Below are positions 9,401-12,400 of a DNA stretch of 64,000 nucleotides, one piece after another; the stretch's first letter is position 1, and every line of letters starts with the position of its first letter. The stretch covers positions 4,758,225-4,822,224 of the forward strand of contig CM119267.1 in NCBI GenBank assembly GCA_051294375.1, written 5' to 3'. The DNA is from Paraspadella gotoi. Its lineage: Eukaryota; Animalia; Chaetognatha. The notes beneath the pieces are model-generated. The model was not told where the DNA came from, searched no databases, and was given only the letters and a program-made list of their open reading frames with translations. Position numbers and translations under genes: made by a program.

Positions 9401-12400
9401 CGTTCACGACGTGATTCAAACAAGATTGAGCAATGAGCATACAACGTGAGATCTGCCCACGATAACCGAGATGTCATTAGCTAATAGATAATAAGTCATG
9501 ATGAATCTTACAATATTTTTTTAAATTCATAACGAGTTAATGGAATAAAGGTTTTTAGTTTTTTAAGGATTGGGGGAGTTATCATCGCAGATGGAATCGG
9601 AGGACTCTCTGATTGGATGAATCATCGTCGGAAACGAACCAATGAGAAGACGGGATTCATGCCATCGTGGCGTGTCGATAATCCGATTTTAGACTAGAGT
9701 ATAAATACCTGACCATTTTGTATTGAATCCATCTGTCTCAAATTCTGAACACCGTCTTTGCTTGTGACTTTCTGAGAATAAAATCCACTTTTGGTTTCAT
9801 GTTGAAATCTCTGTCTACCTACTTAAATGTGGTGGCAGTGGTGGGATTCGAACCCACGCCTCCAGAGAGACTGGTGATTTTGGCGGTTGTGGTCTGTGTC
9901 TGTTAATGAGTTGGTCGTGCCTGTAGTCGGGCATAGCAAAGTTCACCCCGCCTCTAAGCATGACACCTTCAGTCGTGACCCGGTGGCTCATTGAGTAAAG
10001 CCATCGGCTCATGACCACTAGGTACCGGGTTCAATCCCAACCCGGTACCTACCCTGCGGGAAGTGTGAGGACGGCCGTAAGCCGCCTTGGGGGCGTGGAA
10101 AACCGTCAAGCCTGGTTCCAAGCCCAGGACCCGTTCCATAGCTGCTAGGGAGGGTTAAGAAGTTACGGATAGTCATCTTCTGCCCACTTAGCGCCTTATC
10201 CACATGCCTATTGTGATGTGAGTTGTGGAGATTGTGGTTGTTTTGGGTCCTTGTGGTGGTGGTGGTTGTGGTTTCAGTGGTTGTGGTCCGAGGGGTAGTT
10301 ACGGTCGGTTTATTGATTGTGGTCGTTGTAGAAAATGTTTATTATTTTCTATGCCACGAGGGTCGCGCATTCGATTCGTCGGCTGTAGGTTAAACATGGA
10401 GCAAGGTTTTCTAAATCTCGAATGACATAAATGACGAATAAATCGTGAATAAATTGTGCATAAGTTTATTATTGAAGAAGAAATAAATGGCGAAATTATG
10501 TTGTACAATAAGTTCATGTAGAAAATTCTTGGATTCCGTAAAAACTACGGTTCTATGGTGGACTAAAATCCACCAACCGTTCATCAGCGGCCATTGGTGC
10601 CGGAGGCAAGACATTCGCCTCCCAACCCAAAGGTCCGGGGTTCTAGCCCGGTGGTCGTCTGGCAGTTACGAGGGACGGGGCGCTTAACCCGCCTGTAACA
10701 CGGTGTTACAGCCTGATCCGAAGCTCAGGGACTGCTTATATTGAACGGTTTTATCACTAACTCATAACAATAATTACTGTCTCTTCAGTTCCATACAGCC
10801 GATCTTTTCCAGAGAAACGATTATGATCGAATAACAAGTGACGAGGTTTTCGGCTAAAAGAAAGTTACAAGAAAGCGACGAGAACGGTGAAAAGACTGGT
10901 CTGAAAAGGTCCACTAAATGACCGGGGAAAAATGACCGGACGCGAGGTCACCAAATCTTTCAGTCGTTATACCACAAGGTCATTGCATTGTTTGTGGTTA
11001 TTGTGATTATTATAGTGGTTGTAGTTGACATAATGATTTTGGTGTTCGTTTTTTTATAAGTGATTTGGGTTGACTTAGTTGTTTTAGTTATTTTATGCTT
11101 TTTGTGGCAGCTGTTGGAAGACTAGACACTAGGTCAAATCGCCATCCAAATGCCACGGCTTCTAAAAGCATCCAAAACGCGACTCCGAGATCGTTAATGG
11201 GTTGACTGCAATGTTGCGCCCATGCCATGTCAATTCCCTGCCACTACTACATCACACGACATCACCTCCACCACCCACTCCAGCGTTTGTCCATGACCTG
11301 TTATAATATCCCAGCGATCCGAGGTCATCCTCCTTGTTCCCTTCGATGATGTAGGATGTCGACATTGTCCAGCATAAACTTTCCGCGTATTCTTCTTGTG
11401 CGCCTGCGAATGTTGATAAAAGTTCACTAGTTTTTTCGAGTCGAAACTGATTTACATTCGATACATCCCAATGATGGCTAATTGCCTCTTTAATTAACCA
11501 TCGGTTATTTTTAATAATCTTTATTGGTTTTTATCTTTGTTTTTATTAACATTACAAAAGTATTTACGCAGCTTATTTTTGAAAATGTAACGGTAACGTT
11601 TTCGATCTTATTTAGTTTATTTTATTTGAAAAAAAAAAACGTTTAATGACACACAAATTATCATGATCATTATATTTCGTGAATTTGGGTAAGTTTTATC
11701 AAAGGGATTGGGGCTTATACAGCAAGAAACTTACCCTTGAAATAAGCGAAATGTACTTACCCGTGAAATAGACGGGGAGGAAACACTGAATTTGATTTCC
11801 TCTGATGAATTCGCCGCCAAAAATCAGCGTCAACTGAATTCCGATGATGGCGACGATGTAGCGTCTGTTGGAAAGTAGTTGGAGTTAGTTAAAGGATCTC
11901 TCTCTCTTTTCTCTCTCTCTCTTTTCTCTCTCTCTCTTTTCTCTCTCTCTCTTTTCTCTCTCTCTCTCTCTCTCTCTCTCTCTCTCTCTCTCTCTTCTCT
12001 CTCAACTCCTCTGAAATTAACCCCTCTGCCCTTCCTCCCCCCCATCTCCTTCTCCCTTCCCTTCCCCTCTGCCATTTTTTTCTTCTCTTCCCTCGCGTCT
12101 TTTGTTTTTCTGTTTTTCTTCTCGGTCGAACTCGTTGAGCCTCGTTTCCGTCGACCTCCGACAGAGATCAGCGCCAATCACACTTCTCGTGGATTTCGAC
12201 CATTTCCTCTTTTCATCAGAATCCGTCCTATTTTGCGTTCGCCGCTGAATCTTTCTTTCCAGGCGAGCAAACTCACCACTTTTTTTTTTATTTCTTGAAT
12301 CTCCACGTCTGCTCTCTATTTTTATCCCTCGGAATTTAAACGTACCAAGCCTCTCCCTCTCACAACCTCACCTTCTATTTATTCTTCCTCCTCCTTACCA

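Follow-up and report, generated by a model that had tools for sequence, protein, structure and literature searches.

The window analysed here, a stretch of 64,000 nucleotides of animal genomic DNA (Paraspadella gotoi), contains an innexin gene on the minus strand, identified by Pfam Innexin matches together with a tblastn exon map, and its relatives show 64-84% identity over one exon (Table 1). Two units, each composed of a degenerate tRNA-like head followed by a predicted twister ribozyme, were placed by the same evidence in intron 3 of this gene, which bears out the innexin-intron location given in a preliminary description of this DNA. Both units have plus-strand orientation, opposite to that of innexin. 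The innexin pre-mRNA would escape cutting because the twister copies are antisense, and regulation of innexin through cleavage was ruled out since the strand is the wrong one.

Table 1 Positions in the window of the innexin gene, the two insertions and the parts of the predicted ribozymes
Feature	Position	Strand	Evidence or remark
Innexin exons	12567-12490, 11866-11759, 11410-11297, ~5120-4923	-	tblastn exon map
Innexin exons, continued	4383-4189, 3090-2968, 2123-1917, 767-597, 416-318	-	tblastn exon map
Innexin intron 3, approximate bounds	5124..11296	-	Pfam Innexin matches, tblastn exon map; contains both insertions
Element 1, 283-bp solo-LTR-like repeat, TG...CA ends	9922..10204	+	TGCC duplication, 9918-9921 and 10205-10208
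Degenerate tRNA-like head 1	9977..10049	+	CAT loop 10010-12; A box from 9984, B box to 10037
Predicted twister type-P5 variant 1 (unit 1)	10056..10134	+	Descriptor, pairings; Rfam Twister-P5 16.4-16.8 bits, sub-threshold
Unit 1 P5	10056-60/10130-34	+	
Unit 1 P2		+	3 bp, bulge at 10064
Unit 1 general base	G10067	+	Followed by A10068
Unit 1 T1	10069-71/10117-19	+	GGA pairs TCC
Unit 1 P1	10072-77	+	2 bp only
Unit 1 predicted cut	Between U10078 and A10079	+	
Unit 1 T2	10084-85/10122-23	+	First strand GC
Unit 1 P3	10086-10110	+	
Unit 1 P4	10111-15/10124-28	+	
Element 2, 234-bp solo-LTR-like repeat, TA...CA ends	10554..10787	+	GTTC duplication, 10550-10553 and 10788-10791
9-bp inverted repeat enclosing head 2 and twister 2	10575-83 with 10742-50 (10575..10750)	+	5' arm upstream of predicted Pol III start
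Degenerate tRNA-like head 2	10587..10659	+	CCC loop 10621-23; A box from 10595, B box to 10648
Predicted twister type-P5 variant 2 (unit 2)	10661..10736	+	Descriptor, pairings; Rfam without match
Unit 2 P5	10661-66/10731-36	+	
Unit 2 P2		+	3 bp, bulge at 10671
Unit 2 general base	G10674	+	Followed by A10675
Unit 2 T1	10676-78/10718-20	+	CGG pairs CCG
Unit 2 P1	10679-84	+	
Unit 2 predicted cut	Between U10685 and A10686	+	
Unit 2 T2		+	Present
Unit 2 P3		+	8 bp
Unit 2 P4		+	CCTGA/TCAGG

Two families of dispersed solo-LTR-like repeats

Contigs from four of 14 runs were aligned to positions 9900-10960 (23,560 records in X1, 1,570 in X9, 4,184 in X5 and 5 in X12). The aligned runs are contigs and incapable of showing RNA ends; X9, whose RNA origin is a guess and whose contigs reach into all 30 bins, was counted as DNA-like evidence only. 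Depth was high over two blocks in three of the four runs, with ~11-59 at 10224-10295. Relative to low-copy background, the summed depth in the three runs was ~36,500x, 550x and 12,700x for the block of element 1, and ~82,000x, 2,150x and 34,900x for that of element 2. Depth does not equal copy number and one run is possibly the window's own source, so we conclude only that the depth suggests thousands of copies or more for both repeat families. By taking both elements as BLAST queries against the window, we found no further copies in it, and the copies present are solo.

The edges of the repeats were fixed by these alignments independently of the 4-bp duplications, each of which has a chance probability of ~1 in 256. 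Unrelated AT-rich flanks begin sharply at 10554 (183, 33 and 60 contigs in X1, X9 and X5, respectively) and at 10787 (152, 43 and 73 contigs), and 72 X1 contigs have unrelated flanks beginning as sharply at 10204; consensus agreement of the flanks was 0.39-0.46. At the left edge of element 1 the alignments end at 9939-9941, from where the loose-end consensus extends as far as a TGTAG start corresponding to 9922. The empty site of element 2, in which 10549 is joined to 10788 and four letters are shared, was recovered from 7, 3 and 2 contigs (X1, X9 and X5); its presence in several contigs results from element 2 having inserted within another repeat.

One of the five X12 records, at a depth of 5.4, matches the element 2 family over 10754-10787 and then continues as TTGGTGAGCCCGAC. 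TTGGTGAGCCCGAC agrees with 13 of the 14 letters of a PBS for tRNA-Trp that has been published for both Gypsy-32_NVi and Helenus-2_SyJa. X12 is filed under a different organism label (a relative or carry-over is possible), and a second X12 record continues differently. The contig is, on thin but specific evidence, a putative 5'-LTR-PBS junction, and it concerns the element 2 family only. Three observations on these ends count against the retrozyme interpretation developed below: the PBS is known from one contig and has one mismatch, the empty site comes from element 2 only, and element 2 starts with TA instead of TG, as does one published Helenus LTR in the consulted portion of PMC10886601.

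In the preliminary description, the two units are tandem modules from a family of Pol III tRNA-twister chimeras. It is correct that elements of this kind form a repeated family, while the tandem arrangement does not hold: two families inserted independently, each with its own duplication, and the DNA between them is partly at background depth. A 607-nt RNA spanning the two cut sites was likewise rejected as a designed unit, as the insertions are independent and a T4 run at 10241 intervenes. As to the kind of repeat, it had been called a SINE or a retrozyme. The retrozyme is the closer of the two, and the SINE label does not fit elements that have LTR-type ends and 4-bp duplications, carry 55 bp (element 1) or 33 bp (element 2) ahead of the head and have no A-tail. 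The marks of a SINE2, a start at the head and an A-rich or simple-repeat tail, were not found in either element, and the ends are fixed at CA.

Short length, very high copy number, dispersal and a 4-bp duplication could also be accounted for by non-autonomous, MITE-like DNA transposons carrying a Pol III tRNA-twister gene. Some DNA transposons do generate 4-bp duplications. We nevertheless give this possibility very little credence, because both elements are devoid of terminal inverted repeats past their end dinucleotides and a PBS-like junction follows one of them. A tRNA-derived SINE-like or non-LTR retrozyme repeat, in which the ribozyme would release monomers from tandem Pol III transcripts, is also very improbable: the two units come from different families and each has a 4-bp duplication of its own, the intervening DNA does not exceed background depth at 10224-10295, the flanks are diverse and not tandem, and the ends are LTR-like without an A-tail, one of them followed by a putative PBS. 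Animal non-LTR retrozymes, as far as described in the available part of PMC7229834, have longer duplications and no PBS. What speaks for such a repeat is the placement of the units, 600 bp apart on one strand, and the precedent of the schistosome Sm-alpha repeats, with the same layout of tRNA head and ribozyme and an upstream unit that transcribes the next (PMC6765202, in the part available).

Predicted twister ribozymes behind tRNA-like heads

The A/B-box scan, whose output was without the 100-nt stretch upstream of element 1, returned both heads and two real tRNA genes only, and the A/B boxes and the CAT and CCC loops of the preliminary description are present. Neither head was called a tRNA by ARAGORN or Rfam. 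Head 2 has a 7-bp acceptor-like stem, and head 1 folds into two hairpins and not a cloverleaf; the heads look like predicted Pol III internal promoters rather than working tRNAs. P5 of the twister begins 6 nt past head 1 and 1-2 nt past head 2. Including the twister, 128-155 nt follow the heads. Downstream of its head, element 1 has no T4 run and the T4 run of element 2 (10749-52) is broken in 95% of the depth, and Pol III would therefore traverse the LTR. The predicted cut, internal in the P5 permutation, is ~27-29 nt past the head end. At this distance the tRNA 3' end would not be matured, and the proposed trimming of the head by the ribozyme, which would be the way of a theta ribozyme, had to be abandoned.

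Both units have the motif order P5, P2', GA, T1', P1, UAA, P2, GC, P3, P4, U-NNN-AAGC, P4' and P5'. The core bases (GA, UAA, GC and U-NNN-AAGC), the T1 and T2 pseudoknots, P2 and P4 could all be traced in each of them, with the catalytic G and A intact, and the assignment of a complete type-P5 twister motif is upheld. Comparison of the two units also confirmed covariation in T1 and P4, with two-sided changes at two of three T1 pairs and one of five P4 pairs; the P3 and P5 sequences are largely different, and T2, the catalytic G and the catalytic A are the same in both. An odd geometry is common to both: six bases separate T1' from UAA, P1 has at most 2 bp, and P2 is a bulged helix of 3 bp. No hammerhead core was found in either element.

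To estimate how often such folds occur by chance, we applied a P5 descriptor, in which both pseudoknots are required, to both strands of the window and found two matches, exactly units 1 and 2. The descriptor gave no match in the first 100 shuffled windows and seven matches in a further 785 shuffles (0.009 expected versus two observed), and on shuffled elements it gave 0 of 40,000 for element 1 and 1 of 40,000 for element 2; this null is somewhat favourable to the units because the descriptor was written once they had been seen. A significant CM score for the twisters, which the preliminary description had set as a test, was not obtained: unit 1 scored 16.4-16.8 bits with Rfam Twister-P5 against a gathering score of 37.6 bits, and unit 2 had no match up to E = 10. 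At the gathering threshold, Rfam returned the two real tRNAs and nothing else from the whole window. Both units fall outside the RF02684 catalogue, as the gathering score is not reached, and the model itself leaves pseudoknots unscored and has no long P3.

Energy folding, which is incapable of modelling pseudoknots, recovered P5 and P4 in both units and P3 in unit 2, and also gave in both a competing hairpin that covers the predicted cut site. This hairpin, the sub-threshold Rfam scores and the strained P1 and P2 are observations that count against the retrozyme interpretation. In the part of PMC11662667 available to us, natural twisters are reported to tolerate imperfect P1, P2 and P4 helices and not defects in pseudoknots or catalytic bases, and ~94% of the natural twisters tested cleaved; P1-less variants from S. 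mansoni are described as active in the accessible text of PMC8501958. An assayed precedent for a 2-bp P1 with a 2-nt loop combined with a P2 one base short was not found in the literature. On balance, both predicted twisters are likely to cleave.

Variation among copies was assessed from the 40 of 126 variant rows covered. At least nine rows fall inside the two twisters, and seven of the nine are at unpaired positions (P2 bulge, P3 loops and linker), whereas a base pair is preserved or newly formed in the remaining two. A C at 10105, present in 98% of the X1 depth, pairs with G10091, and an A at 10661 converts a G-U pair to A-U. Among the rows listed, none hits a catalytic or pseudoknot base. 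These data bear on a possibility in which the repeats are solo LTRs of the Helenus type and the twister fold, acquired for instance with the 5' end of a non-LTR element, is now a passenger that has no activity or no bearing on mobility. In favour of a passenger, deletions in some copies extend over head or ribozyme, the Rfam scores are sub-threshold, P1 is strained and P2 short, and twisters are known at the 5' ends of non-LTR elements (PMC8501958 and PMC7761336, both in part). However, two divergent families have kept the catalytic bases, and the pseudoknots by two-sided changes, in the same place behind the head, and the within-family variants among the rows listed spare the fold; we thus regard a passenger as distinctly unlikely.

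A proposed route through circular RNA

Helenus elements (TRIMp3; Kojima 2024, PMC10886601) are TRIMs with tRNA-like LTRs that have 4-bp TSDs in animals, a Gypsy-type PBS and solo LTRs. From their sequence organisation, the units described here are probably Helenus-like Pol III TRIM LTRs that carry a predicted twister. We further consider it reasonably probable that they belong to a Pol III-driven, twister-based animal LTR retrozyme, the RNA of which would be cut once per LTR, circularised and copied by a Gypsy-type RT. The directly observed part of this interpretation comprises the LTR-type ends, the 4-bp duplications, dispersal at high copy, the empty site of element 2, the A/B boxes, the twister core and one putative junction of an LTR end with a PBS.

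A full copy would have the structure LTR-PBS-internal-PPT-LTR, and the copies in the window would be solo remnants. Pol III would initiate at the head of the 5' LTR, meet no T4 run and transcribe past the 3' LTR, and the twister would then cut at the U-A step in each LTR, so that the job of defining the RNA ends would pass to the ribozyme. The resulting unit-length RNA would be without the terminal repeat needed for strand transfer, and circularisation by an RtcB-type ligase is therefore proposed. In the available text on plant retrozymes, cleavage in both LTRs likewise leaves no terminal repeat and a circle is proposed as the template (PMC4918200), and animal retrozyme RNA is reported to have been circularised in vitro by RtcB (PMC7229834, in part). 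Copying of the circle would fall to a tRNA-Trp-primed reverse transcriptase of the Gypsy type, supplied by a helper, and insertion of the copy, with a 4-bp duplication, to an integrase, as has been proposed for plant LTR retrozymes.

The same parts could also work without a circle. If a Helenus-type TRIM had an active twister that cut efficiently in the 3' LTR only, the ribozyme would substitute for a Pol III terminator, and the linear RNA would retain a terminal repeat of ~100 nt, made up of the head and the beginning of the twister, through which strand transfer could proceed in the usual way. The 9-bp stem that closes element 2 needs an arm upstream of the Pol III start and would thus form only in the 3'-LTR copy of the transcript, the competing hairpin at the cut site could slow cutting in the 5' LTR, and many published Helenus LTRs have a T-run directly after the tRNA, where the twister sits here (PMC10886601, in part). 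Element 1, on the other hand, has no counterpart of this stem, a circle would form the stem of element 2 as well, and the ribozymes of the two LTRs are otherwise identical, with the 5' one transcribed first. Overall, we consider a linear RNA of this kind unlikely.

Extended to the genome as a whole, the retrozyme interpretation would mean at least two families of LTR retrozymes, each with thousands to tens of thousands of copies, its own tRNA-derived Pol III promoter, a compact twister of type P5 in each LTR and replication through circular RNA made by the twister; in this full form it is put forward as a serious but tentative possibility.

Wider search and comparison with known systems

A search of literature titles and opening abstracts, made mainly among openly accessible papers, returned neither a twister in an LTR nor a ribozyme in Helenus. 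Scans with twister-variant patterns gave no match in metagenome, viral or prokaryote genome contigs. With looser patterns, three viral matches were dismissed as chance, having no P4 pairing, and one metagenome match, within a bacterial coding gene, was dismissed likewise.

In these elements, TRIMs with Pol III promoters (Cassandra, Helenus and Ajax) would come together with LTR retrozymes that bear a ribozyme, two oddities that have been described apart, and an animal would have a retrozyme of the LTR type, although animal retrozymes have no LTRs according to reviews. If the interpretation is true, LTR retrozymes would be known for the first time from an animal, and for the first time with a twister as their ribozyme, and the twister population of this genome may be the largest of all. 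What twister ribozymes do in eukaryote genomes is mostly obscure; here they would have a definite and testable task, one that would also be a natural counterpart to engineered circular RNA expression by twister plus ligase. Since a high-copy twister variant was missed by Rfam, similar elements may hide among unannotated repeats.

Comparison with the twister class (RF02684) shows that the core bases, both pseudoknots and the topology are shared and that activity is known from twisters with a short P1 or none, while a 2-bp P1 hairpin, a 3-bp bulged P2 and a long P3 distinguish the units and lead to their sub-threshold scores. Theta ribozymes, which are HDV-like and phage-borne, also lie directly 3' of a tRNA-like sequence but cleave at the 3' end of the tRNA, whereas the units have an internal predicted cut and heads that do not look like working tRNAs. 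The T-variants of S. mansoni, as described in part in PMC8501958, are at the 5' end of the autonomous non-LTR element Perere-3 and not in LTRs. The Sm-alpha SINE-like repeats likewise combine a tRNA-related Pol III element with a self-cleaving ribozyme in an animal, and differ, in the available text of PMC6765202, in having a hammerhead, tandem arrays and neither LTR ends nor a PBS.

Plant LTR retrozymes (Cervera et al. 2016, PMC4918200, in part) are likewise non-coding, with a 4-bp TSD and solo LTRs, and have a self-cleaving ribozyme per LTR and a Gypsy-type PBS, for which the elements offer a predicted twister and, in the element 2 family, a putative PBS; in the same text they are confined to plants and have a type III hammerhead, a tRNA-Met PBS and no tRNA-derived promoter. 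Animal retrozymes are stated, in the portions available, to be without LTRs, PBS and PPT (PMC7761336 and PMC7229834). The elements would therefore be retrozyme-like in their proposed working and not members as retrozymes are defined, because the predicted fold is a twister and not a hammerhead.

The closest likeness is to Helenus, in which a degenerate, non-functional tRNA-like sequence with A/B boxes lies inside a short LTR, and which shares the 4-bp TSD in animals, solo LTRs and several families per genome. Helenus LTRs end in TG...CA, as element 1 does and element 2 (TA...CA) does not, and the Gypsy-type PBS of Helenus, which may be of the tRNA-Trp kind, was seen for the element 2 family in one contig with 13 of 14 letters. 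Copies are reported at up to ~5,600 LTRs; the depth here suggests similar numbers or far more. Helenus LTRs usually end ~10-60 nt past the tRNA, often after a T-run (in the part of the report available), compared with 128-155 nt and a twister here. No ribozyme is reported for Helenus: 'twister' and 'self-cleaving' occur zero times in the main text of PMC10886601, and among the LTRs of its supplement inspected by eye no twister core follows the tRNA. Three twister loop strings matched that supplement once, in an internal region, where line breaks may hide other matches. The preliminary description, which recognised no described system, had overlooked Helenus as the closest of those known; Helenus explains the tRNA half. 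The elements are best classed as a combination of a Helenus-like Pol III TRIM LTR with a proposed retrozyme-like use of a ribozyme, each of a kind already known by itself.

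Repeat surroundings of element 2

Element 2, the second solo-LTR-like repeat with a tRNA-like head and a twister fold, is inserted in a third repeat family, for which the contigs of sequencing run X1 aligned to the window have a depth of mostly 10^4 to 10^5 (see table). A short tRNA-like remnant lies near 10352-10384, inside this third family. The extreme 5' end of element 2 forms a 7-bp hairpin, which adjoins an arm of the closing stem, the 9-bp inverted repeat around head and twister. Both element families are also present at low depth and ~95% identity in run X12, which carries a different organism label, and these copies could derive either from a close relative that has both families in common or from carry-over.

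Coordinates of features in the window
Feature	Position	Strand	Basis or note
Run X12 contig matches	10013-10128, 10727-10794		
Third repeat family	10296-10549, 10788-10960		contig depth, run X1
7-bp hairpin	10556-10574		5' end of element 2
tRNA-Phe(GAA)	13503-13575	+	intact gene
tRNA-Gly(GCC)	13641-13711	+	intact gene
Dispersed repeat	17466, 23665, 35074, 36715, 42955, 63321		families D17 and D19
Open frame	54730-55290	-	186 codons

Other features of the window

Upstream of innexin, ~0.9-1.1 kb from its start, are the two intact tRNA genes, which are encoded on the opposite strand. The dispersed repeat, at least 60-90 bp long, occurs in both orientations within the window. The open frame had no match in a Pfam search; its end presumably resembles DNA-transposase remnants.

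A tRNA-like half upstream of element 1

Directly 5' of 9922, the upstream edge of the solo-LTR-like element 1, lies a minus-strand tRNA-like 3' half, which we take to be tRNA-Leu-like; it has a terminal CCA and breaks off at the anticodon loop. From its sequence, this half may be the extended primer-binding site (PBS) of a different LTR element, now decayed, that served as the insertion target of element 1, because the plus-strand reading of the half resembles the Leu-AAG PBS of Gypsy elements and of Helenus elements, which are TRIMs with tRNA-like LTRs.
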